DNA of 10,539 bases from a virus. The stretch lies in UHGV virus genome UHGV-0159509; one strand, written 5' to 3'. Within the stretch, counting starts at the first letter, position 1, and the number at the start of each line of letters is the position of its first letter. Under the pieces are notes generated by a model. It was not told where the DNA came from. It worked only from the letters and a program-made list of their open reading frames with translations, and did not search any database. Below are positions 1-10,539 of this stretch, in pieces. A program made the translations under genes and the position numbers.

Positions 1-8
1 ACTCATGA

Positions 9-950
9 TCACCCCCTGAATCCTGCCGGGATCTGGCTGTAGTCCACGTTGTCGTAACTGGCTTTGAAGTACGGGTCTTCGCGTTTTTCGGTGTACGTGC
101 TGACGGACGGCGATAAGCGCAGGGAAAGCTCATCCCATTTTTCCCGCAGCTTCGACGGGCTGAGCACGTTACGGCACCAGAACGGATCGCGGCTGACGCG
201 GCTGTACATCTCGCAGATTTGTTTGTGAGTACGACCATCCTGCACACACATCAGGCGAATTTCGTTTGCCCAGGCTGTCCAGTTCGGTTCTTTGGGACGA
301 ACCACCTCGCCGTCACATTCGGCGGCCTGCTCGTACAGGGCGATGATTTTTTTCCAGAGCCACTGTGCGCAGGTCAAATCATCCTGCGTTCCCCACTGGC
401 GCTTTTTAGGGCTGAATACAACCGCATCAGGATGGCGAGTTAAAAAATCCTGTTCAGCCGTCTGCGTGTCCGGTTGCGAAGCGTCCGGACGAGAAGGTTT
501 TTTATCTGACGGATCATGTTTTGATTTTACTGACGGATCCCCGCCAGATTCTGACGGGTGAAAACCCGCTTTTTTGCCAGATTTCGACGCATCAAATTTT
601 GACGGGTCAGATTTTGATGCGTCAGATTTTGACGGGTCAGAATCTGACAGTTGAGAAAATGCCGCTGCCTGAAGCTTCGCAACGTTAAGCTGATAAACAT
701 TCGACGCATTGCGGTTACCCTGGCGACGCGCCTTACGCGTTAACCAGCCTTCTGCTTCCAGCCGTGCGATAGCCGTTCTGACGGTACTCATCCCCGCGCC
801 AATCTGGCGGGCAATGGTTTCAATTGATGGCCAGCACACACCTTCGTCATTACTGAAATCAGCCAGGCGGGCCATAATTGCCACGCTGGATAATTTCATG
901 CCTGATGCAGCGCAACCATCCCATACATAGCCGGTTAATTTAGTGCTCAT
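9..950 (-). CDS. Phage replication initiation protein (lambda O-like; N-terminal winged-HTH, repetitive acidic/Ser-rich linker, C-terminal domain)
   Basis: 313-aa ORF with ATG at 950 preceded on the minus strand by AGAGG. N-terminus (SVAIMARLADFSNDEGVCWPSIETIARQIGAGMSTVRTAIARLEAEGWL) looks like a winged-helix DNA-binding domain. A low-complexity linker (SDSDPSKSDASKSDPSKFDASKS) is encoded by iteron-like DNA repeats, as in lambda O where ori lies inside the gene. Position after cro/cII-like genes fits. The stop (TGA, 9-11) is followed 2 nt later by an ATG at 6-4 on the minus strand, so the next gene (P-like position) starts at 6 and runs off the window. Confidence 0.8.
   Translation of the reverse strand: MSTKLTGYVWDGCAASGMKLSSVAIMARLADFSNDEGVCWPSIETIARQIGAGMSTVRTAIARLEAEGWLTRKARRQGNRNASNVYQLNVAKLQAAAFSQLSDSDPSKSDASKSDPSKFDASKSGKKAGFHPSESGGDPSVKSKHDPSDKKPSRPDASQPDTQTAEQDFLTRHPDAVVFSPKKRQWGTQDDLTCAQWLWKKIIALYEQAAECDGEVVRPKEPNWTAWANEIRLMCVQDGRTHKQICEMYSRVSRDPFWCRNVLSPSKLREKWDELSLRLSPSVSTYTEKREDPYFKASYDNVDYSQIPAGFRG
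504..650. repeat. Iteron-like repeat array inside the replication gene (putative phage origin)
   Basis: Three tandem 15-bp units at 596-610, 611-625 and 626-640 (ATTTTGACGGGTCAG / ATTTTGATGCGTCAG / ATTTTGACGGGTCAG). Degenerate copies start near 504, 527, 548 and 580 (cTGACGGatc, cTGACGGatc, cTGACGGGTg, cGACGCATCa). Each unit has internal dyad symmetry (CTGAC...GTCAG), and the unit at 584-593 is the inverse of the one at 616-625. Confidence 0.55.
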
Positions 951-959
951 GACCGACCT

Positions 960-1298
960 CTATTTCCCTGAATTTACGACGAAACTGTTCGAGCGGGCTG
1001 AAGCACTCATGCTCATAGCCTTCGCGGAGGTAGATAACTCGTTGTGTTTCCGGCTCCCAACGAATGACTCTGACGGGCACTCCGTAGTGATCTTTGAACC
1101 AGCGGTTAACTTGTCGCAAAGGACTGTCTCCTTCTGCCGGTTGAAATCACCCACAGCCCACTCTGCAAAGCTGTGGGTTACAATTTCCCTGTCACCTGGT
1201 ACATTCACTGCATAGCAATACTCCACCTTCGCTTTTCCACCCGGTACAGGAAGCGCAATCAGTTGCGAGCGACGGTAGTGTGTTGTTAAACTGTTCAT
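960..1298 (-). CDS. Hypothetical protein (112 aa), translationally coupled to the upstream CII-family gene
   Basis: ATG at 1298-1296 overlaps the stop of the upstream gene (ATGA overlap). Stop TAG at 962-960 sits just before the SD of the replication gene. The C-terminal third is Ser/Ala-rich and low complexity, and a 90-aa ORF lies antisense (943..1215), so the coding assignment is uncertain. Confidence 0.5.
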
Positions 1299-1846
1299 GC
1301 GTTAGTTTCTCCACAGTCACGACACGCCACGGCGCCCGGAGCTGCACACTCGCGGGCGTCATTACTTTCTGAAATGCAAAAAATTTTGTAGACCAGTGCT
1401 GCATGCTCCTGCAGCTTCGAAATTGAGAGGTACAGCTCGTCGTTAATTGCTGTCTTCTCATGCGGTTCCACTACACCGTCTTCAATTGCTGAACGAATCT
1501 GTTTTGAATAACTGCCGATCTGTTCAATGACCTCCAGCAGGCGTTGGTTGATATCGGCGTTGTCCACATCCTCGACATCAGGAAGAGACACAAAGACGCC
1601 ATTTGCAGACTGCGCCACAGCGTCAGCAATGAAGTGAGTTCCACCAGCACGTTGCAAAATCATTGCCCATCCCAGCGGGAAAATCTGATCGCCATCGGCA
1701 CGAAGGCGGTTAAATAATGCGTTCTCTGTTACATCCAGCCAGTCAGCTGCTTCAGCGTAACCACCCGGCAACGCTGCGATAGTTTTTCTGACAGCTTTCA
1801 CGTACCACTCAGGCTGTTTTTCTACTTTCCAGTGATGCTTACCCAC
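1295..1846 (-). CDS. Phage regulatory protein, CII (CP76-type)/YdaT-like family
   Basis: 183-aa ORF with GTG start at 1846-1844 preceded by a strong SD (AGGAGG, 6-7 nt spacer) on the minus strand. It sits immediately downstream of the cro-like gene, the classic cII position. Family assignment is from memory of similar prophage proteins, not a search. Confidence 0.65.
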
Positions 1847-2099
1847 GGTTCACCTCCTGTTCCTGTGGTTTAAACCCATTCTGGTTTTGGCTAGATTGAA
1901 AACGTGCCGGATAAAGAATCTGCATTTCGCTGACTTCACCCTTAAAAAAATTGGCTAAACGTTCTGCAAGCTCGATAGATGGAATCTGCTCCAGCCTCTC
2001 AATACGACTCAACGTCGCTGGATTGACTTGAACACCCGCAGCAACATGCTGCAAAGTGAAACCATGCGCCTTACGCACATTTCGTAATGGTGATTGCAT
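1839..2099 (-). CDS. Cro-like HTH (XRE-family) transcriptional regulator
   Basis: 86-aa ORF with ATG at 2099-2097 and SD GGAGG 5 nt upstream on the minus strand. HTH segment FTLQHVAAGVQVNPATLSRIERLEQIPSIELAERLANF. Divergent from the CI-like repressor across an operator-rich intergenic region. Confidence 0.8.
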   Translation of the reverse strand: MQSPLRNVRKAHGFTLQHVAAGVQVNPATLSRIERLEQIPSIELAERLANFFKGEVSEMQILYPARFQSSQNQNGFKPQEQEVNRG

Positions 2100-2196
2100 A
2101 CGCCCTCCAAATATTGCGCGTTATGCATGTTATTTCACGCAATTATTTTGCGCAAGTTGATTTGCTTATCACGCAATAAAGAAATGTAATAAACGC
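2100..2196. promoter_or_regulatory. Divergent operator/promoter region (OR with PR/PRM equivalents)
   Basis: 97-bp AT-rich intergenic region between divergent cro-like and cI-like genes. Repeated CGCAA/TTGCG half-sites: ATTGCG 2112-2117, CACGCAA 2136-2142, TTGCGCAA 2148-2155, CACGCAAT 2170-2177. Candidate PR on the minus strand: -35 TTGCGC (rc of 2150-2155), -10 TAACAT (rc of 2127-2132). Candidate PRM on the plus strand: -10 TAATAA at 2187-2192, ending 4 nt before the cI ATG. Confidence 0.6.
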
Positions 2197-2889
2197 ATGA
2201 ACATAGGAAACCGAGTCAGACAACTTCGCCAAGCGAAGAACATGAAAATCGCCGATCTCGCTGAAGCGATAGGAGTAGATGCGGCGAACATCTCGCGCTT
2301 AGAAACGGGTAAGCAAAAACAATTTACCGAACAAACACTGAGTAATATTGCCAAGAGCTTAGGTGTTGATATTGCTGATCTCTTTACCTCTGCCCACAAA
2401 AGTAATACTGTATATAAAAACAGTAATAATGAGGATGTTGCGCAGGTGAAGGATGTGTTCCGTATTGAAATGCTGGATATCAGTGCCAGTGCGGGAAATG
2501 GCCTTATCCAGGGCGGTGATGTCATTGATGTGATTCATGCCATCGAATACAGAACTGATAATGCTGTATCAATGTTCGGCGGACGACCAGCCAATCACAT
2601 CAAAGTTATCAACGTTCGTGGGGACAGTATGTGTCCAACCATTGAGCCAGGAGATCTCATCTTCGTTGATGTCAGCATCAATCAGTTTGATGGTGATGGT
2701 ATATATGTCTTTGGTTTTGATGACAAAATATACGTTAAAAGACTTCAAATGATTCCTGACAAACTGCTGGTGATTTCTGATAACCAGATTTACCGTGAAT
2801 GGGGAATTACTAGCGAAAACGAACACCGATTCATGGTCTTTGGAAAGGTCTTAATCAGTCAGTCGCAAACCCTTAAGAGACATAATTAA
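2197..2889 (+). CDS. CI-like prophage repressor (N-terminal HTH, C-terminal S24/LexA-like autopeptidase domain)
   Basis: 230-aa ORF. N-terminal HTH (MKIADLAEAIGVDAANISRLETGK). C-terminal S24 peptidase signature GDSMCPT (Ser nucleophile) with downstream Lys (VKRL). Candidate Ala-Gly autocleavage site in DISASAGNG. No SD upstream of the ATG. Confidence 0.9.
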   Translation: MNIGNRVRQLRQAKNMKIADLAEAIGVDAANISRLETGKQKQFTEQTLSNIAKSLGVDIADLFTSAHKSNTVYKNSNNEDVAQVKDVFRIEMLDISASAGNGLIQGGDVIDVIHAIEYRTDNAVSMFGGRPANHIKVINVRGDSMCPTIEPGDLIFVDVSINQFDGDGIYVFGFDDKIYVKRLQMIPDKLLVISDNQIYREWGITSENEHRFMVFGKVLISQSQTLKRHN

Positions 2890-2909
2890 CCTCAATATCC
2901 CATCCATCG

Positions 2910-2933
2910 GCCACCGAAAGGTGGCTTTTTATT
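2910..2933 (+). terminator. Rho-independent terminator downstream of the repressor gene
   Basis: Perfect 6-bp GC-rich stem GCCACC/GGTGGC (2910-2915 with 2920-2925) closed by a GAAA tetraloop, followed by TTTTT (2926-2930). Confidence 0.8.
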
Positions 2934-2939
2934 ACCCAC

Positions 2940-2995
2940 CATTTTGCATATTTCGCAAATATTACTTGCATATCTCGCAATTTAATTTTATCTTT
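2940..2995 (+). promoter_or_regulatory. Putative OL/PL-like operator-promoter (second cluster of CGCAA motifs)
   Basis: ATTTCGCAAATAT (2950-2962) and ATCTCGCAATTTA (2972-2984) resemble the CGCAA half-sites of the cI/cro intergenic region. TTGCAT -35-like hexamers at 2944-2949 and 2966-2971, with AT-rich -10 candidates around 2983-2994. Confidence 0.4.
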
Positions 2996-3143
2996 TGTTC
3001 CAGACCAACTACAGGATTACAACAAAATCTGGTTGCAACACGGTGCATGTGTCGTAAGCAGTCAGTAAATGTCAAAAACGAACAGGCAGGACGCCCACGA
3101 AGTAGCCGCCTGGGGCATATGAAGTCCAGGATGATTCGTTAGC

Positions 3144-3170
3144 AACAAAAAAGCGCCCTACAGGACGCTT
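3144..3170 (-). terminator. Candidate intrinsic terminator for the minus-strand 144-aa gene
   Basis: Hairpin AGCGCC-CTACA-GGaCGCT (3152-3169, one bulge). On the minus strand it is followed directly by TTTTTTGTTG (complement of 3141-3150). Confidence 0.45.
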
Positions 3171-3184
3171 AGCTCTTTAACAAT
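3152..3184 (+). promoter_or_regulatory. Antiterminator-like site: hairpin followed by rrn-type boxA (GCTCTTTAACAAT)
   Basis: 3172-3184 GCTCTTTAACAAT matches the E. coli rrn boxA core as I recall it (TGCTCTTTAACAA). It is preceded by the 3152-3169 hairpin in the boxB-then-boxA order seen in rrn leaders, and lies between the putative PL and the first plus-strand ORF. Confidence 0.45.
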
Positions 3185-3228
3185 CTGGTCCCCATCAACA
3201 AGTAACTGATAACTTGAGGAGATGTGAA

Positions 3229-3435
3229 ATGCACAAAACAGAACCCAAAATCGTCGCGCCTGGCTACACAGATGAGGAAATTTATGAGTGGATGACAAAG
3301 AAGCTGGCAGCTATAAACCAGCTTCGTGAAGTGCTGTCTTATCGACAGGAAACAATAGACTCCTTAAAAAAACTGGATCAGGAAATCACGGTTTTATCAC
3401 AGGATGTTACTTTAGATATTGTGCAGACAAATTAG
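3229..3435 (+). CDS. Hypothetical small protein (68 aa, predicted helical/coiled-coil)
   Basis: ATG at 3229 with SD GAGGA (3216-3220, 8-nt spacer). AT-rich codon usage. The 3' end overlaps the convergent 144-aa gene by 29 nt. No recognisable family. Confidence 0.5.
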   Translation: MHKTEPKIVAPGYTDEEIYEWMTKKLAAINQLREVLSYRQETIDSLKKLDQEITVLSQDVTLDIVQTN

Positions 3436-3841
3436 GATCCCATTCATTTTCGTCAAAATCATCAAAGTGATGAATTTGTGATCTCCAGTCTCGATAATCT
3501 AAAAATTTCTGGGCGGTTACGCTTATTTTATCAAGTGTGAGTTCATCCTGAATTGAAAGAAGAAGTTCATCAAATTTCATCTCATTAATCTGTTTTGGCA
3601 TCCAGTGATGCTTCATCAGAATAAGGTGAACCAGAGCCTTTTTCCCATTCAACTGATTATAGGGAGTGCCGAATTTCTTCCGGTGCTCATGTAAGACAAG
3701 GTCCAAAAGAGTAAGTAATGTTGCCCTTGATTCAACTTTGCTTATTTCGACTGATGACACTACCCCACTGATTTCAATGCCCCGATACTTTCCAACATTT
3801 TCACAGTGGGATTTGTACAGCGTATAGATATTACCGGACAT
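3407..3841 (-). CDS. Hypothetical protein (144 aa), AT-rich accessory gene in the immunity region
   Basis: ATG at 3841-3839 with SD AAGGAAAAG upstream on the minus strand. A long ORF in AT-rich DNA, where stop codons are frequent. No transmembrane stretch and no recognisable domain. Opposite in orientation to the flanking early-left genes. Confidence 0.65.
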   Translation of the reverse strand: MSGNIYTLYKSHCENVGKYRGIEISGVVSSVEISKVESRATLLTLLDLVLHEHRKKFGTPYNQLNGKKALVHLILMKHHWMPKQINEMKFDELLLSIQDELTLDKISVTAQKFLDYRDWRSQIHHFDDFDENEWDPNLSAQYLK

Positions 3842-3856
3842 TTCTTTTCCTTTTGC

Positions 3857-3908
3857 GTTGTTGGGGATAACCAGATTAACCGAATCCTTGTTGTTGGGGA
3901 ATAACCAG
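3857..3908. repeat. Two direct repeats GTTGTTGGGGA(A)TAACCAG upstream of the 144-aa gene
   Basis: R1 at 3857-3874 (18 nt) and R2 at 3890-3908 (19 nt, one extra A), 33-bp period, 16 nt from the start codon of the minus-strand gene. Confidence 0.6.
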
Positions 3909-4127
3909 GTCCACCTCGCCTGATGTGGCTAAAAGCAGGCACATAACAGCTAAGTATTTTCAACCAGAGAGAATCCTTAGCGTTGTGGTGAATGCGGCTC
4001 AGCGCACGCGGGTTAAGGTTGAGGCTGACAGTCGACCTTCTGTGGATACCCACCCGCCTGGTGTGCAACCTTCGCCAGGCACCGGGAGGCACCCGGCACC
4101 ACAACTTTATGCTGTGTGTAGTCCTGG

Positions 4128-4172
4128 CGGTACCAGTTTGTACCCTTGCTTCCGGCTGGTACCGTCCTTTTT
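4128..4172 (+). terminator. Terminator-like hairpin inside the structured island
   Basis: 9-bp perfect stem CGGTACCAG/CTGGTACCG (4128-4136 with 4156-4164), 19-nt loop, followed by TCC then TTTTT (4168-4172). Confidence 0.45.
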
Positions 4173-4261
4173 ACAAAACAGAGAAGAGCATCACCGGACG
4201 ACGGGCTCATAACCCAATCCATCCGGGCGGCTGCCACCGCAGGTGTTCTTCTCTGTTTTGT
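4173..4261. repeat. Long inverted repeat (18-bp stem, 53-nt spacer) just upstream of the first early-left gene
   Basis: 4173-4190 ACAAAACAGAGAAGAGCA pairs with 4244-4261 TGTTCTTCTCTGTTTTGT: 17 Watson-Crick pairs plus one G-U in RNA. The GC-rich interior (4191-4243) has further CCGG/CCGGG pairing potential. Confidence 0.6.
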
Positions 4262-4309
4262 GGAGAAACCAACCGACCTTGCAGGGTCGATATGATGAGG
4301 AGCAGCAAA

Positions 4310-4672
4310 ATGGCTAGCGAACGCAGTACTGATGTGCAGGCATTTATCGGGGAGCTGGACGGCGGCGTATTTGAAACCAAAATCGGCGCAGTTCTCAGTG
4401 AAGTCGCTTCCGGTGTGATGAACACGAAAACCAAAGGTAAGGTCTCACTCAACCTGGAAATCGAACCATTTGATGAGAACCGTGTGAAAATCAAACACAA
4501 ACTCTCATATGTTCGCCCGACTAACCGCGGGAAAATTTCCGAAGAAGACACCACCGAAACGCCGATGTATGTCAATCGCGGTGGTCGCCTGACTATTCTG
4601 CAGGAAGACCAGGGACAATTACTGACTCTTGCCGGTGAACCTGACGGAAAACTCCGCGCAGCAGGTCATTAA
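4310..4672 (+). CDS. Hypothetical prophage early protein (120 aa; YfdP-like by size and position)
   Basis: ATG at 4310 with SD GAGGAG (8-nt spacer). The upstream in-frame extension to 3992 is GC-rich nonsense. Size and position upstream of the YfdQ-like gene match my memory of CPS-53 yfdP; unverified. Confidence 0.75.
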   Translation: MASERSTDVQAFIGELDGGVFETKIGAVLSEVASGVMNTKTKGKVSLNLEIEPFDENRVKIKHKLSYVRPTNRGKISEEDTTETPMYVNRGGRLTILQEDQGQLLTLAGEPDGKLRAAGH

Positions 4673-4737
4673 TATCGTTCTTAATTAACTGATTATTTAT
4701 CTCATCACTGAATATCTTTATATAGTGAGGACTTATT

Positions 4738-5562
4738 ATGTCTCAGAACTTAGACGCAACCGCAATTAATCAAATCCATGCCCTTATTTCTGCTCAGGGT
4801 GTTAATGAAATTATCAGTAAGATTGGTGCCGATGCTGTGGCATTGCCTGAGAATTTCCGCATTCATGATCTGGAAAAATTTAATTTAAATCGCTTCCGTT
4901 TCCGTGGTGCGCTTTCCACTGCCAGCATCGATGACTTTACCCGTTATTCTAAAGATCTTGCAGATGAAGGCACCCGCTGCTTTATCGATGCTGATAATAT
5001 GCGTGCCGTCAGTGTGCTTAACCTGGGTACTATTGATGAACCAGGTCACGCAGATAACACCGCCACTCTCAAACTGAAAAAGACAGCACCGTTCTCTGCT
5101 CTGTTGTCTGTTAACGGCGAGCGTAACTCCCAGAAGTCACTGGCAGAATGGATTGAAGACTGGGCCGACTACCTTGTGGGCTTTGATGCTAATGGTGACG
5201 CCATTCAGGCAACAAAAGCGGCTGCGGCAGTCCGTAAAATCACGATTGAAGCAAACCAGACCGCTGATTTTGAAGATAATGACTTCAGCGGCAAACGCTC
5301 CCTGATGGAGTCTGTCGAAGCGAAGACCAAAGACATTATGCCAGTGGCATTTGAATTTAAATGCGTTCCGTTTGAAGGTCTGAAAGAACGTCCGTTTAAA
5401 TTACGCCTCAGCATTATCACTGGCGATCGTCCTGTACTGGTTCTGCGCATTATTCAGCTGGAAGCGGTGCAGGAAGAAATGGCTAACGAATTTCGTGATC
5501 TGCTTGTTGAGAAATTCAAAGACAGCAAAGTAGAAACCTTTATTGGTACTTTCACCGCCTGA
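4738..5562 (+). CDS. yfdQ: YfdQ-like (DUF2303 family) prophage protein
   Basis: 274-aa ORF with ATG at 4738 and SD GTGAGGA. Length and position immediately before an HD-domain YfdR-like gene match the CPS-53 yfdQ-yfdR arrangement as I recall it. Family assignment from memory, not a search. Confidence 0.7.
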
Positions 5563-5574
5563 TTTCATTACTGC

Positions 5575-5600
5575 AAATGCCCCTGCGGGGGCATTTATGG
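5575..5600 (+). terminator. Intergenic hairpin (possible attenuator/weak terminator) between yfdQ-like and yfdR-like genes
   Basis: Perfect 9-bp stem AAATGCCCC/GGGGCATTT with TGCG loop (5575-5596), followed by AUGG rather than a U-run, so a weak terminator at best. Confidence 0.35.
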
Positions 5601-5689
5601 AAACGTAATTAACTCAATAATCACCGGATGGTGAGGGCTTCCTTTTACCAGAATTCAGCGCGGTGCAGCGCATATACGTGGAGAACAAA

Positions 5690-6226
5690 ATGTCATTTAT
5701 TAAAACTTTTTCCGGGAAGCATTTTTATTATGACAGGATAAATAAAGACGACATCGTTATTAACGATATCGCGGTTTCCCTTTCAAATATCTGTCGCTTT
5801 GCAGGACATCTTTCACACTTCTACAGCGTCGCCCAACATGCGGTGCTTTGCAGCCAGCTGGTGCCGCAGGAATTTGCTTTTGAAGCGTTAATGCATGATG
5901 CAACAGAAGCGTATTGCCAGGACATCCCCGCACCACTGAAACGCCTTCTTCCTGACTATAAACGGATGGAAGAAAAAATAGACGCCGTAATCCGTGAGAA
6001 ATACGGGTTACCCCCAGTTATGAGTACGCCCGTGAAATATGCCGATCTCATCATGCTGGCAACCGAACGCCGCGATCTCGGGCTTGATGATGGCTCTTTC
6101 TGGCCTGTACTGGAAGGTATCCCGGCAACAGAGATGTTCAAAGTGATTCCACTGGCACCGGGCCATGCCTACGGGATGTTTATGGAACGTTTTAACGAGT
6201 TATCGGAGTTACGCAAATGCGCATGA
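5690..6226 (+). CDS. yfdR: HD-domain phosphohydrolase, YfdR-like 5'-deoxynucleotidase
   Basis: 178 aa from ATG 5690 with SD GGAGA (5-nt spacer). HD-domain motifs H...H (VAQHAVLCSQ) and HD (LMHDATEAY) plus a downstream Asp (YADLIM). Size matches E. coli YfdR (178 aa) as I recall it. Confidence 0.8.
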   Translation: MSFIKTFSGKHFYYDRINKDDIVINDIAVSLSNICRFAGHLSHFYSVAQHAVLCSQLVPQEFAFEALMHDATEAYCQDIPAPLKRLLPDYKRMEEKIDAVIREKYGLPPVMSTPVKYADLIMLATERRDLGLDDGSFWPVLEGIPATEMFKVIPLAPGHAYGMFMERFNELSELRKCA

Positions 6227-6696
6227 ATGTTTTCGAAATGGAAGGGTTTCTTCGCGGGAAATGTGTACCGCGAGATCTGAAAGTGAACGAAACAAACGCT
6301 GAGTACCTGGTGCGTAAATTTGCTGAAGCTGAGGCCAAGTGCGCGGCGCTGGCCGAAGACCAACAGAAAGCGATTGAGTCAATTAAGCAGGCTGATGCGG
6401 CTGTTAAGTTGGCACACGAGAAGTTTTCGGCGCTGGCGGCGGAGAATGCGGGGCTGAAACATGCAATGGCTGTAACTCTTGAGCATGTGTCGGTCACGGA
6501 TGCAGGGCAGGCCGGAGTTGCTGCAATGATTATCAACGATGCCCTGCACCACAGCGAAACCCCAGCCACCGATGCTTTCCTGGCTGAAGTACGGGCGCAG
6601 GGCGTGGAGATGTTTGCGGAGTGTGCATACACACTTGAACATCATGATCACGCAGTAGCCTTCGCCGCTGAGCTTCGCAAAGGAGGCAACCAGTGA
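6217..6696 (+). CDS. Hypothetical early protein (159 aa), Ala-rich, predicted helical
   Basis: ATG at 6217 with SD GGAG 8 nt upstream, overlapping the stop of the preceding gene. Its stop overlaps the next gene's GTG (GTGA). Confidence 0.65.
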   Translation: MRMNVFEMEGFLRGKCVPRDLKVNETNAEYLVRKFAEAEAKCAALAEDQQKAIESIKQADAAVKLAHEKFSALAAENAGLKHAMAVTLEHVSVTDAGQAGVAAMIINDALHHSETPATDAFLAEVRAQGVEMFAECAYTLEHHDHAVAFAAELRKGGNQ

Positions 6697-7208
6697 GCGA
6701 AATTAATTACCAGGCACTGCGTGAGGCGGCGGAACGTGCAATTCCAGCAATGGAACGCCTGTTAATGTTGCCAGCTGATGATGATTTGTTAAGTGAACAA
6801 GAACTTAAAGATTACGGTGTGGATATTGATGCGCTCAACGCCTTCAAATTTCTGGCCGGACCAGAAACCGTGCTGGCGCTTCTGGATGAACGGGAAAGAA
6901 ACCAGCAATACATCAAACGCCGCGACCAGGAAAACGAGGAGATTGCGTTAACGGTAGGGAAGCTGCGCGTTGAGCTTGAAGCAGCAAAATCAAAACTCAA
7001 CGAGCAGCGTGAATATTACGAGGGAGTAATCGCGGATGGAAGTAAGCGCATAGCAGAACTGGAGGAGCGGGAAATACTGCTCCCGGAACGTAGCAGCATG
7101 CTTCATCGAACAGATTTTCACGAGGATTACCAAACGGTAATGGCATACAAAGTTTCTGAAGTCATCGCTGCAATCCGCGCCGCTGGCATTCGCATCAAAG
7201 GAGAGTGA
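6693..7208 (+). CDS. Ead/Ea22-like protein
   Basis: 171 aa with GTG start at 6693 and strong SD AGGAGG (6-nt spacer). The N-terminus (MSEINYQALREAAE), central LDERERNQQYIKRRDQENEEIALTVGKLRVELE and C-terminal AGIRIKGE resemble the lambda Ea22 family from memory. Confidence 0.75.
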   Translation: MSEINYQALREAAERAIPAMERLLMLPADDDLLSEQELKDYGVDIDALNAFKFLAGPETVLALLDERERNQQYIKRRDQENEEIALTVGKLRVELEAAKSKLNEQREYYEGVIADGSKRIAELEEREILLPERSSMLHRTDFHEDYQTVMAYKVSEVIAAIRAAGIRIKGE

Positions 7209-7209
7209 G

Positions 7210-7401
7210 ATGGACGGACAAATATCAATCGTTCGACCAGGAGCATGTGACGATCGCGAAATACGAATAATTATTCGTCTGGCAATGGGGAAAGCAATAA
7301 CTGCTCTCATTACCCCAGAAAATCTCGCATTAGCATTAACAGGAAAGTCAGACCTGCCAGTAGAGCTAAAGCTGCGAAATGTTGAGATTAAGGTGAAATA
7401 G
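7210..7401 (+). CDS. Hypothetical small protein (63 aa)
   Basis: ATG at 7210, 1 nt after the preceding stop, with SD GGAGAG. Embedded in a tightly coupled operon. Confidence 0.55.
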   Translation: MDGQISIVRPGACDDREIRIIIRLAMGKAITALITPENLALALTGKSDLPVELKLRNVEIKVK

Positions 7402-7403
7402 CT

Positions 7404-8069
7404 ATGACCACTATTACCAAAGAACGTATCGAATTATTCATTAAAAATCCGCTTGAAAACGGGCTTACTCGTGGCGAACAAATGGAACTGGCACGAATTG
7501 CACTGGCATCACTGGAACGCGAACAGATTCGCCACGAGCATGCCAAATGGTCTGACTCCACATTTGGCTGCGTTGGCCCCATTGGTCCACTGAAACACCT
7601 CTCAAAAGAGGCACTGGAAGCCGCAGCCGAACCAGAAGATCTTAGCGAGTGGGCTGATATGCAGTTTCTGTTGTGGGATGCACAGCGCCGTGCTGGCATC
7701 AGCGATGCTGAAATTACCGCTGCTATGGAAGATAAATTGAAGATCAACATGGAGCGCCAGTGGCCTGAGCCAAAAGATGGTGAGCCTCGCTTGCACATTA
7801 AAGAACCCGGCAACTATCCGGTAACTCCGGATAGTTGGATAAGCTGTAGTGATCGAATGCCAGAAATGGGAGAGCGACAATGCTATGCGTTAGCGGCTGA
7901 CTTTAAAAACAACTACCCGCCACACATCCCCAACACTCAGGTCGGCGTATATGGCGACTGGTTTAATGATGGCGATCCCACTTGGGTTGACGGTGATGGC
8001 GAAGACCTGTATCTCAAAGAGGTAACCCACTGGATTCCGCTACCAGAACCGCCGCAGGAGGTGAAGTGA
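7404..8069 (+). CDS. DUF550 (MazG-like NTP pyrophosphohydrolase-type) / DUF551 fusion protein
   Basis: 221 aa with ATG at 7404 and SD AAGGTGA. The N-terminal half resembles DUF550/MazG-like prophage proteins. The C-terminus ends in the DUF551-typical HWIPLPEPP motif. Confidence 0.75.
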   Translation: MTTITKERIELFIKNPLENGLTRGEQMELARIALASLEREQIRHEHAKWSDSTFGCVGPIGPLKHLSKEALEAAAEPEDLSEWADMQFLLWDAQRRAGISDAEITAAMEDKLKINMERQWPEPKDGEPRLHIKEPGNYPVTPDSWISCSDRMPEMGERQCYALAADFKNNYPPHIPNTQVGVYGDWFNDGDPTWVDGDGEDLYLKEVTHWIPLPEPPQEVK

Positions 8070-8641
8070 TGAACAACTTAATGATCGACCTTGAGACGAT
8101 GGGGAAAAATAAGGATGCACCGATCGTTTCCATTGGCGCGGTGTTCTTCACTCCAGAAACCGGAGACATCGGACAAGAATTCTATACGGTTGTTAGCCTG
8201 GAAAGTGCTATGGGGCAAGGAGCTACACCTGACGGCGATACCATCCTGTGGTGGTTGAAACAAAGCCCTGAAGCACGAGCTGCAATCTGTATTGATGATA
8301 CTTTGTCGATCAGCGATGCACTCTCTGAACTGAGCCATTTCATTAATCGGCACGCAGACAATACGAAATATTTAAAAGTCTGGGGTAACGGAGCCACCTT
8401 CGACAACGTAATTTTACGTGGAGCTTATGAGCGAGCAGGACAAATCTGCCCGTGGGCATACTGGAATGACCACGATGTACGCACGATCGTTACGCTTGGG
8501 CGTTCCATCGGATTCGACCCCAAAATGGACATGCCTTTCGATGGCGAACGGCACAACGCCCTGGCTGATGCCCGTCATCAGGCAAAATATGTTTCCGCTA
8601 TCTGGCAGAAATTAATTCCTGCCACCAGCACAGAATTATGA
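8069..8641 (+). CDS. DnaQ-like (DEDDh) 3'-5' exonuclease
   Basis: 190 aa from ATG 8069 with SD AGGAGG (7-nt spacer); start overlaps the upstream stop. Exo I motif IDLET near the N-terminus and Exo III-like H-x4-D (HNALADARH) near the C-terminus. Confidence 0.8.
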   Translation: MNNLMIDLETMGKNKDAPIVSIGAVFFTPETGDIGQEFYTVVSLESAMGQGATPDGDTILWWLKQSPEARAAICIDDTLSISDALSELSHFINRHADNTKYLKVWGNGATFDNVILRGAYERAGQICPWAYWNDHDVRTIVTLGRSIGFDPKMDMPFDGERHNALADARHQAKYVSAIWQKLIPATSTEL

Positions 8642-8677
8642 TTTTCCCGGGTGCAGCCGGTTTTGATGGAGAAAATT

Positions 8678-8959
8678 ATGAACACCTTGTTTTTACTGAT
8701 GGCTGAATTCAATACCCCAAACATTGAACTCTCAGCAGTTAGCCAAAAGTACTTTGGTATGAGTCCAGCCACGGCAGAAGCAAAAGCAAACGCTTGTAAG
8801 TTGCCCGTTCCAACATATCGCATCGGCACATCACAAAAAGCAAAACGTTGCATCAATATTCAGGATCTTGCGGAATACATAGACAAAAGACGAGAAGAAG
8901 GACGTATCGAGTGGGAACAGGTCAGAACAAGCAAACAGAAGGGCAAAGAACATCACTAA
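8678..8959 (+). CDS. Excisionase-like / PrtN-family DNA-binding protein (putative Xis)
   Basis: 93 aa from ATG 8678 with SD GGAG (6-nt spacer). Resembles the PrtN/excisionase-like family (MNTLFLLMAEF..., basic C-terminus). Last gene of the early-left operon, the classic xis position. Confidence 0.6.
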   Translation: MNTLFLLMAEFNTPNIELSAVSQKYFGMSPATAEAKANACKLPVPTYRIGTSQKAKRCINIQDLAEYIDKRREEGRIEWEQVRTSKQKGKEHH

Positions 8960-8961
8960 AT

Positions 8962-8987
8962 AAAAAACCCGCCTTTAGGCGGGTTTT
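8962..8987. terminator. Bidirectional rho-independent terminator between convergent operons
   Basis: AAAAAA-CCCGCC-TTTA-GGCGGG-TTTT: perfect 6-bp GC stem with a 4-nt loop, flanked by an A-run and a T-run, so it can terminate both strands. Confidence 0.85.
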
Positions 8988-9006
8988 CAAAAAGCACCAG
9001 CTATGA

Positions 9007-9180
9007 TCATGCTGCTTTGAGACGACGAAGCTTACCCTGCTGCTCTTTACCAGAGACAGTAGCGTGAGTGAACGCATTAGGAGCAGCCTTCATCAGAACT
9101 TCAACAGCAGCACCCATACCTGCGAATGCTTTCATTGTGTCGAACTTAACCTGTGGCTTGGTTGCTTTTTGATCTTCCAT
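9007..9180 (-). CDS. Hypothetical small protein (57 aa), absent from the ORF track
   Basis: Found by hand translation of the minus strand: ATG at 9180-9178 with SD AGGAG (6-nt spacer), stop TGA at 9009-9007. Product MEDQKATKPQVKFDTMKAFAGMGAAVEVLMKAAPNAFTHATVSGKEQQGKLRRLKAA. Sits 39 nt downstream of the 139-aa gene and just before the bidirectional terminator. Confidence 0.5.
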   Translation of the reverse strand: MEDQKATKPQVKFDTMKAFAGMGAAVEVLMKAAPNAFTHATVSGKEQQGKLRRLKAA

Positions 9181-9219
9181 AGAAAACTCCTGAAGTTATA
9201 CCGAAACAATTCCTGTTGT

Positions 9220-9639
9220 TTACTCATCATCAATAGATGATACGCAATATTTATTTTTAAATTTAAGGTTCTTTGGCGTAACTTCATCAGATATATCAAA
9301 ACCGTCCAGAATTCTATTGAATGTAGCTTCTGGCATATCATCATGAACGGAAATCTCACCCGATCGCTGCTTTCTAACCATGTTATCCACTCGCCAAATT
9401 ATAGCTTCAGCGTAAACAACATAACTTGGATGCTTGATAAAGCGATGATCACCAGAATTCAAGACGCAAGACGGATCGTGGGGGACACCATCCTTGATAC
9501 TAGAAATATTAACAACTAAAACACAATAACAATCGTTAACGGGGTAATAAACAGGATCATTACAAATCACATGAAGATGATTGCATGGCCCAGTTGGGGC
9601 AAGCACAGTTCCTTTCCTGTATGGCTGATAATCCGTCAT
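9220..9639 (-). CDS. Hypothetical protein (139 aa), candidate toxin/effector partner of the Panacea-domain protein
   Basis: ATG at 9639-9637 overlaps the upstream gene's stop by 4 nt (ATGA). Soluble, Cys/His-containing (GPCNHLHVICNDPVYYPVNDCYC... DH ... VHDD), AT-rich. No recognisable family. Confidence 0.65.
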   Translation of the reverse strand: MTDYQPYRKGTVLAPTGPCNHLHVICNDPVYYPVNDCYCVLVVNISSIKDGVPHDPSCVLNSGDHRFIKHPSYVVYAEAIIWRVDNMVRKQRSGEISVHDDMPEATFNRILDGFDISDEVTPKNLKFKNKYCVSSIDDE

Positions 9640-10208
9640 GATAATTGCAAAGAAAATTCCTTAAGTTTCTGAGATTCTTCCATTTTGCCAATTATGCGAT
9701 TAGCCTCATCCTCGCTTTTACCCTCACTGATCAGCATTTCTTTCAGGTCTATAGGCTTACGAGAATTGCCAGGATCGTGCCACTCTGGACAAACGCTTTC
9801 TAAATGCGTCATATTTGCGAGATCAAATCGGTTCATATGCCCATACAGAGAATAGATTTCATCTAAAATCCGGATATCTGCACGGCTCAACTCATCAAAG
9901 ACCTCGTCTGCATCCATTTCCCTCGGATCTGAACGCAACAACACATCATGCCCGTTCGTCTCTATCAGGTTGTACCAGTAGTCACCAATACCTTCAGCCT
10001 TACCACGAATCAAGTTCAGCGTATTCGACATGACTGGACCAAATTTCATAGAGTAAAGGCTATCTTCGCCGATCATCCTGCCATGCTTCAAAATCGACTG
10101 GCGGTTAGACAGATAGAGCAACTTCATCAATTTCAGATATGCCATGCGCCCACCTCGCTTAAGAAGTAGGTATGCAGCCATTTGAGCTACTTTTTCTTCG
10201 CAAAACAT
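9636..10208 (-). CDS. Panacea (DUF4065/SocA-like) domain protein, putative antitoxin PanA
   Basis: 190 aa with ATG at 10208-10206 and SD GAGG on the minus strand. The N-terminal region (VAQMAAYLLLKRGGRMAYLKLMKLLYLSNRQSILKHGRMIGEDSLYSMKFGPVMSNTL) follows the conserved DUF4065/Panacea pattern as I recall it. First gene of a two-gene overlapping cassette. Confidence 0.75.
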   Translation of the reverse strand: MFCEEKVAQMAAYLLLKRGGRMAYLKLMKLLYLSNRQSILKHGRMIGEDSLYSMKFGPVMSNTLNLIRGKAEGIGDYWYNLIETNGHDVLLRSDPREMDADEVFDELSRADIRILDEIYSLYGHMNRFDLANMTHLESVCPEWHDPGNSRKPIDLKEMLISEGKSEDEANRIIGKMEESQKLKEFSLQLS

Positions 10209-10340
10209 ATAAGAAACCTCAAAGATAGTGAACTTTGTAATTATTCTCGATACTTCATGGGTTGCTTCATCACCAACATGAGCTTCTTATGGTGTGCCCA
10301 CTTAGGCCTAAGCAACTAGTTACCTTGTTTGTCAAGTTTA
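10209..10340 (-). promoter_or_regulatory. AT-rich upstream region of the Panacea operon with a consensus -35 (TTGACA)
   Basis: Minus-strand TTGACA (rc of 10330-10335). No convincing -10 identified by eye. Confidence 0.25.
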
Positions 10341-10539
10341 TAGCTGGCTTTAATCATGGTCAATTGAAGTGATGAGCAAATGATGCTTTCTAAGAATAAC
10401 AGGTTCCCAATAGGCTCCCACAAAGTGTATAACTAGTTGTTTTTCAAAAACGGTACATCCTATCGAGCATTGGTGCAACGCTAAACCGACCACTCCAGTG
10501 AACGTCAGTTTTTTCAGGCATTGCGCTGGTTTGGTTGAT

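Follow-up and report, generated by a model that had tools for sequence, protein, structure and literature searches.

What does a two-gene cassette led by a Panacea-domain gene do at the very end of a prophage, and is the protein encoded by its second gene a new toxin? These questions are raised by a stretch of 10,539 nucleotides (nt) from the virus genome UHGV-0159509 (hereafter the window, meaning the whole stretch of DNA that was analysed), in which two minus-strand genes encode proteins of 190 and 139 amino acids (aa) and overlap by the four letters ATGA. A sequence-only reading had described the two genes as a Panacea-led, translationally coupled cassette of the toxin-antitoxin type in a prophage accessory slot, with a possibly undescribed protein as the partner. 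The first part of this description is retained here, whereas the partner turns out to belong to a described toxin cluster. The cassette is likely a type II PanA-PanT module of cluster T6 (Kurata et al., 2022), carried as exchangeable cargo beside the site at which a lambdoid prophage is attached in dusA. Its architecture, fold, family membership, and strict pairing were all observed directly in the present analysis.

PanA, a Panacea-Domain Protein and Probable Antitoxin

The 190-aa protein had already been named a DUF4065/Panacea protein, and this call was correct because residues 27-137 score above the cut-off for the Pfam family SocA_Panacea (PF13274; E-value of 2.3e-18 and 67.6 bits vs. a cut-off of 25.7). 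The protein, PanA, has 211 database homologues, and its PanA relatives in Pseudomonas are 42% identical. The GPV motif, which is reported to be critical for neutralisation by PanA (PMC8832971), occurs as F56-G57-P58-V59, and G57 and P58 show no variation among 36 homologues, in which V59 is conserved to at least 90%. The N-terminus (MFCEEKVAQ) resembles that of PanA from Pseudomonas moraviensis (MIFSEQKVAQ), a stretch that was restored to the N-terminus of the P. moraviensis protein by Kurata et al. (PMC8832971). In its AlphaFold2 model (predicted local distance difference test score [pLDDT] of 92.6), PanA is folded throughout; the model includes a long C-terminal helix (residues 166-189) and shows no disordered tail. 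Panacea-only PanA proteins are known to neutralise via the Panacea core (Ernits et al., 2023).

Start Codon of panT and Its Overlap With panA

Both open reading frames (ORFs) were read directly from the sequence at the positions and on the strand that had been assigned to them (Table 1), including the shared ATGA, and they are considered real genes because PanA and PanT have 211 and 62 database homologues, respectively, with E-values down to 1e-76 for the latter. The same -4 overlap was found at four related loci (L007, L008, L010, and L012, the last of which is from Pantoea septica LMG 5345), and Kurata et al. (2022; PMC8832971) record it for most of the T6 pairs from Enterobacterales. No Shine-Dalgarno sequence could be read at a usable distance before the ATG of panT, and the missing ribosome-binding site is, at the level of sequence, consistent with translational coupling to panA.

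The RefSeq annotation, made by the Prokaryotic Genome Annotation Pipeline, calls a shorter panT of 128 aa that begins with a GTG at residue 12 and leaves a gap of 29 nt after panA (L001, 6221-6607). This GTG is preceded by a Shine-Dalgarno-like sequence, AGGAAAGGA, which is made by the RKG codons. The start that yields 139 aa is better supported than the GTG because residues 6-11 (PYRKGT) are kept across genera and the first β-strand of the structural model spans residues 11-16. The RefSeq start appears to be a systematic error, which cuts PYRKGT and part of the first β-strand and conceals the ATGA overlap with panA. Members of the family are also shortened in several Pseudomonas RefSeq entries, to 108 instead of 132 aa.

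Assignment of PanT to Toxin Cluster T6

In a survey of Panacea-adjacent genes, Kurata et al. (2022; PNAS, PMC8832971) sorted predicted toxins into clusters, of which T6 was described as "EndoA/PemK/MazF-family RNases" on the basis of HHpred. The T6 list (Dataset S1 of PMC8832971) includes Pantoea septica LMG 5345, "Yersiniaceae bacterium 2016Iso4", Pluralibacter gergoviae, Proteus vulgaris, Photorhabdus, and Pseudomonas moraviensis BS3668, and the T6 pairs are mostly antitoxin-first with an overlap of -4 or -1. In our genome scans, homologues of PanT were located directly after PanA in Pantoea septica LMG 5345 (56% identity) and in Chimaeribacter coloradensis 2016-Iso4 (L011; 55% identity), and the gene that overlaps the end of panA in Pluralibacter gergoviae (L004) encodes a protein 57% identical to PanT (E-value of 1e-58). 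The P. moraviensis protein SDU72800.1 (P0429), which may be the same protein as WP_083201923.1, is 43% identical to PanT over 120 aa (E-value of 6e-34). The partner was assigned to T6 because the T6-listed strains carry homologues of 55-57% identity right after PanA and because of the more distant match in P. moraviensis.

The description of the partner as an undescribed toxin is thus set aside in favour of a MazF/Kid/CcdB fold and membership in a cluster with a validated representative. This representative, PanT(Pse. mor.), is toxic in E. coli, is neutralised by its PanA, was pulled down with PanA, and specifically inhibits the incorporation of 35S-Met, i.e., protein synthesis (PMC8832971). 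Neutralisation by the tested PanAs is independent of ClpXP and Lon and occurs by direct binding (PMC8832971).

Two other assignments were considered. An unknown toxin family was ruled out by the fold searches together with the link to T6, and membership in cluster T1 was rejected since the T1 protein of Salmonella phage Emek is unlike the partner family and a tblastn search with the partner found nothing in the Emek genome. None of the accessions were found in the supplements of NetFlax (PMC10440598). PanT matched no family in Pfam, NCBIfam, or PADLOC, and its sole match was PHROG 19071, annotated as "unknown function". The PanT family is large and counts 2693 representative clusters at a threshold of E ≤ 0.001 and 929 at the stricter threshold of E ≤ 1e-10.

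Fold and Putative Active Site of PanT

The AlphaFold2 model of PanT, built with 25 homologues, is confident (pLDDT of 90.8; predicted template modelling score of 0.84) and consists of a β-barrel core (strands at residues 11-16, 19-25, 37-47, and 72-83) with three helices C-terminal to it. The top 50 Foldseek matches to this model were all MazF structures (best E-value of 5e-4, with a target-normalised template modelling score of ~0.65), and MazF proteins ranked above CcdB in both fold searches. A fold of a toxin type, specifically a MazF-like one, agrees with what had been suspected of the 139-aa protein, which can no longer be called unrecognised.

Near-invariant polar residues amongst 126 diverse PanT representatives are H21, D55, C58, H65, S72, Y76, and S117, and all but one of these representatives (125) have Ser or Thr at position 47. 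The catalytic residues of MazF are an arginine (R29 in EcMazF, R25 in BsMazF) and a threonine (T52 and T48, respectively). In the register of a non-significant hhalign alignment, S46-S47 of PanT fall on T51-T52 of MazF and H21 lies within one residue of R29. The catalytic site of PanT is probably located in the MazF groove while being chemically unlike that of canonical MazF.

Strict Pairing of PanA and PanT

The pairing of the two families was examined with hidden Markov models built from the PanA and PanT homologue sets, and only loci with sequence upstream were counted. PanA was immediately upstream of PanT in all 24 of 24 species-representative genome loci, which span Gamma-, Beta-, and Alphaproteobacteria, as well as in 57 of 57 viral contigs from IMG/VR. 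Conservation of the gene pair across genomes, a point that the sequence-only reading had raised, is accordingly borne out. The same order of genes was found in Yersinia phage YeP1, Pseudomonas phage Sirocco, and Klebsiella phage ST13-OXA48phi12.5, and in two Pseudomonas chromosomal loci that adjoin integrases; the YeP1 pair also abuts an integrase. In the P2-like phage Sirocco (L035), the pair neighbors the portal gene at the end of the genome. The PanT homologue of Sirocco (1477-1881) is unannotated in GenBank, where a short ORF on the opposite strand is annotated instead.

Proposed Mechanism and Opposing Evidence

By analogy with the P. moraviensis pair, free PanT would arrest growth by blocking translation, most likely via RNA cleavage, and PanA would neutralise PanT by direct binding rather than by delivery to a protease. 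Neutralisation would lift once PanA is titrated, inactivated, or not replenished. Its position suggests that the module would have a promoter of its own that is active in the lysogen, and that it would either abort infection by other phages or stabilise the prophage.

Several observations weigh against this interpretation. The E. coli PanT, a presumed toxin, is only 43% identical to the validated one. Eight other PanTs were non-toxic in E. coli (Kurata et al., PMC8832971), and no T6 member is known to have RNase activity. Two phage-borne members of the non-toxic set that were checked fall in the unrelated cluster T1; the T1 pairs of E. coli MOD1 and Salmonella phage Emek tested "not toxic" (Kurata et al., PMC8832971), a result that was set aside as not applicable to PanT because the T1 toxin is unrelated. 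At the sequence level, PanT gave no PemK_toxin match at E ≤ 1 against the PemK/MazF family (PF02452), profile searches of the PDB with two PanT-family alignments gave no sequence match, and hhalign against E. coli MazF returned a non-significant probability of 0.3. These null results rule out a link to MazF at the sequence level and confine the likeness to the fold. Moreover, no arginine is invariant in the 126 PanT representatives, and the catalytic arginine of MazF appears not to be conserved. A search of PanA and PanT against the defence models of PADLOC-DB 2.0 matched 0 families at E ≤ 1. Finally, shuffled sequence gave at least as many promoter-like sites as the scanned DNA, and the TTGACC-17-TAAACT site upstream of panA is for this reason regarded as a candidate promoter only.

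An Exchangeable Cargo Block Beside the Attachment Site

A lambdoid prophage is integrated in dusA, and the window contains its early-left arm together with one of its ends. The displaced 5' fragment of dusA, which adjoins the cassette, makes up the final ~80 bases, and a yjbM-like gene, zur, dinF, and lexA come next on the chromosome. In Escherichia phage Lys8385Vzw, a free phage genome with 97% identity, the integrase is located directly after panA, which places the cassette between xis and attP/int. The slot in phage mEp460 that is equivalent to the cargo block (Table 1) harbors an unrelated 177-aa ORF (mEp460 locus L003, 3378-3911, minus strand). The block is regarded as a discrete, exchangeable piece of cargo because homology with mEp460 breaks exactly around it and a different ORF lies inside, and the accessory-cargo position that had been proposed for the cassette is supported by this clean swap beside the attachment site. 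The 177-aa ORF of mEp460, which has no match in Pfam or PADLOC, may be another accessory or defence gene.

The orientation of the cassette was also recognised correctly, as the xis-like gene (PrtN/excisionase family) and the cassette converge onto a shared bidirectional terminator. The cassette had further been noted as AT-richer than the prophage core. This holds with respect to the rest of the window, as the GC content is 0.405 for the cargo block vs. 0.476 for positions 1-9193, but the trait is not unique to the cassette since cI (0.42) and a 144-aa ORF (0.379) are likewise AT-rich.

Of 5426 complete E. coli genomes, 205 contain the cassette with a coverage of at least 80%, and it also occurs in many IMG/VR prophage contigs, the predicted boundaries of which frequently start right at panA or panT. 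In ~200 E. coli genomes and dozens of contigs from IMG/VR, neither ORF is disrupted and both are conserved at 99-100%.

Biological Role and Alternative Explanations

The module may take part in anti-phage abortive infection or superinfection exclusion, in which the Panacea domain would sense a product of the invader or the shut-off of the host and free the MazF-fold toxin, halting translation before the invader could finish its cycle. This role, which we consider a realistic possibility though short of probable, is not in conflict with the toxin-antitoxin mechanism, as it concerns what the mechanism is used for. It is supported by the variable slot between xis and attP, where mEp460 has a different gene, and by the location of the Sirocco pair, which neighbors the portal gene at the end of the genome, and of the integrase-abutting pairs of YeP1 and the two Pseudomonas loci. 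P2-like phages reportedly keep anti-phage cargo by the portal/cos end. In addition, Panacea has been proposed to be a sensor domain, and toxin-antitoxin networks have been tied to phage defence (Ernits et al., 2023). However, neither protein matches a PADLOC model, a literature search found no phage-challenge data for any T6 pair, and other cargo for lysogenic conversion is just as typically found on the att side. A role in phage defence or exclusion is favoured by the swappable location next to att and by the repeated occurrence of the pair in temperate phages, while stabilisation of the prophage would be equally classical.

Stabilisation by addiction, to which we give only tentative credence, would mean that loss of the prophage ends the supply of a labile PanA and that leftover PanT arrests the cell, with no role against other phages. 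Such behaviour is classical for type II pairs on mobile elements, and the pair occupies the extreme end of the prophage, where it adjoins the att junction, with its own upstream region inside the cargo block. The lability of PanA that addiction requires is nevertheless unproven because neutralisation was independent of Lon and ClpXP in the tested pairs, and the fully folded model of PanA is unlike typical labile antitoxins.

It is unlikely that PanT uses the MazF/CcdB scaffold for another activity, such as CcdB-like gyrase poisoning or a His/Cys/Asp- or metal-dependent reaction elsewhere. The validated family member blocked translation specifically and not replication, MazF outranked CcdB in both fold searches, and Ser/Thr47 and Ser72 are at the MazF Thr/Ser positions in a register that was derived from the non-significant hhalign alignment and our own reading. 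We are similarly doubtful of a more elaborate scenario, in which the T6 PanTs would combine a MazF barrel with a non-canonical site (H21, D55, C58, and H65) and a non-MazF chemistry, e.g., a metal- or Cys/His-dependent reaction on a translation component, and the prophage would deploy this toxin as a Panacea-sensed abortive-infection switch missed by defence catalogues. That the cassette is an inactive remnant passively carried in E. coli is very improbable despite the several PanTs that are non-toxic in this host, given the intact and highly conserved ORFs, the presence of every family-invariant residue in PanT, and the confident models of both proteins.

Expression Signals and Other Features of the Window

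The coordinates of the cassette, its candidate signals, and neighboring features are summarised in Table 1.

Table 1. Features of the PanA-PanT cassette and its surroundings in the window.
Feature	Coordinates	Strand	Description
panA	9636..10208	-	190-aa Panacea-domain protein without extra N-terminal domain; helical C-terminal extension at ~155-189
panT	9220..9639	-	139-aa predicted MazF-fold toxin, Kurata cluster T6
ATGA stop/start overlap	9636..9639	-	plus strand reads "tcat"; TGA of panA and ATG of panT share 4 nt
Shine-Dalgarno GAGG	10217..10220	-	8 nt before the ATG of panA; read from sequence
σ70 promoter-like site TTGACC-17-TAAACT	10335..10363	-	~127 nt upstream of panA, in cassette-specific DNA; consensus scan
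Terminator-like hairpin	8963..8988	-	first downstream of panT, past the 57-aa ORF; bidirectional with xis; terminator scan
Cargo block (panT, panA, upstream region)	9194..10401		blastn against phage mEp460: homology ends at 9193 and restarts at 10402
Palindrome	10301..10312		perfect, 12 bp; between promoter-like site and panA start
57-aa ORF	9007..9180	-	backbone ORF; PHROG 2741 (unknown function)
xis-like gene	8651..8959		PrtN/excisionase family
144-aa ORF	3407..3841	-	just past cI, on the opposite strand
GC-rich region	~3850..4300		upstream of a yfdP-like ORF

The palindrome upstream of panA, CTTAGGCCTAAG, could be an operator, and only ~0.05 such 12-base-pair (bp) palindromes are expected by chance per 200 bp. 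A search of six related loci did not find the palindrome, and it was rejected as a conserved operator.

The 57-aa ORF follows panT after 39 nt, and its Shine-Dalgarno sequence (AGGAG) is a good one. Only 13 nt upstream of it are common to the window and mEp460, and the ORF is probably transcribed from whichever cargo lies upstream. The terminator scan found no terminator between panT and this ORF, which may be read through from the cassette because none precedes the hairpin at 8963-8988. The ORF was rejected as a third component of the module, as it is kept in mEp460 without PanAT and is missing from divergent PanAT loci.

The AT-rich 144-aa ORF near cI has no match in Pfam or PADLOC and may be further accessory cargo in the immunity region. 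In the adjacent GC-rich region (0.52-0.56), the only ORFs are long ones that overlap one another, on both strands. Scans with Rfam and for tRNAs gave no matches anywhere in the window, this region included.

Comparison With Known Systems

Other Panacea-led pairs are known from Enterobacteriaceae or their phages, including PanAT of Shiga toxin-producing E. coli (STEC) O31 and the T1 pairs of E. coli MOD1 and Salmonella phage Emek. The cassette is unlike these in its toxin, as that of STEC O31 is a membrane toxin (PMC8832971) unrelated to PanT and that of Emek has no similarity to PanT, with an accompanying PanA that is only 24% identical. The type VI system SocAB of Caulobacter likewise has a Panacea domain in its antitoxin. 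However, SocB inhibits replication and is degraded through ClpXP, in contrast to the direct binding by which the tested PanAs work, and PanA scores 13.1 bits against the NCBIfam equivalog of SocA (NF047745), for which the cut-off is 190.

Unlike the toxins of MazEF and Kid-Kis (PemIK), with which it has no detectable sequence similarity, PanT lacks an invariant catalytic arginine, and it has an extra pair of C-terminal helices (residues 104-131) compared to MazF and Kid. The antitoxins also differ, the one encoded here being a Panacea protein rather than an AbrB/SpoVT-type MazE.

The E. coli pair differs from PanA-PanT(Pse. mor.) in its setting, a dusA-integrated lambdoid prophage as opposed to a locus classed as "NotPhage", and in its overlap, which is -4 instead of -1. 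In other respects the two pairs are alike. Both consist of the same two families with the antitoxin first and the genes overlapping or abutting, both have a PanA with the same N-terminal motif and no extra N-terminal domain, and both have a toxin of ~130-140 aa with a MazF-like fold and no Pfam or CDD match, the two toxins being 43% identical. As a likely PanA-PanT module, the cassette represents no new type of system. It gives the large T6 toxin family a prophage-encoded example that is native to E. coli, and this family lies outside the defence catalogues (PADLOC).
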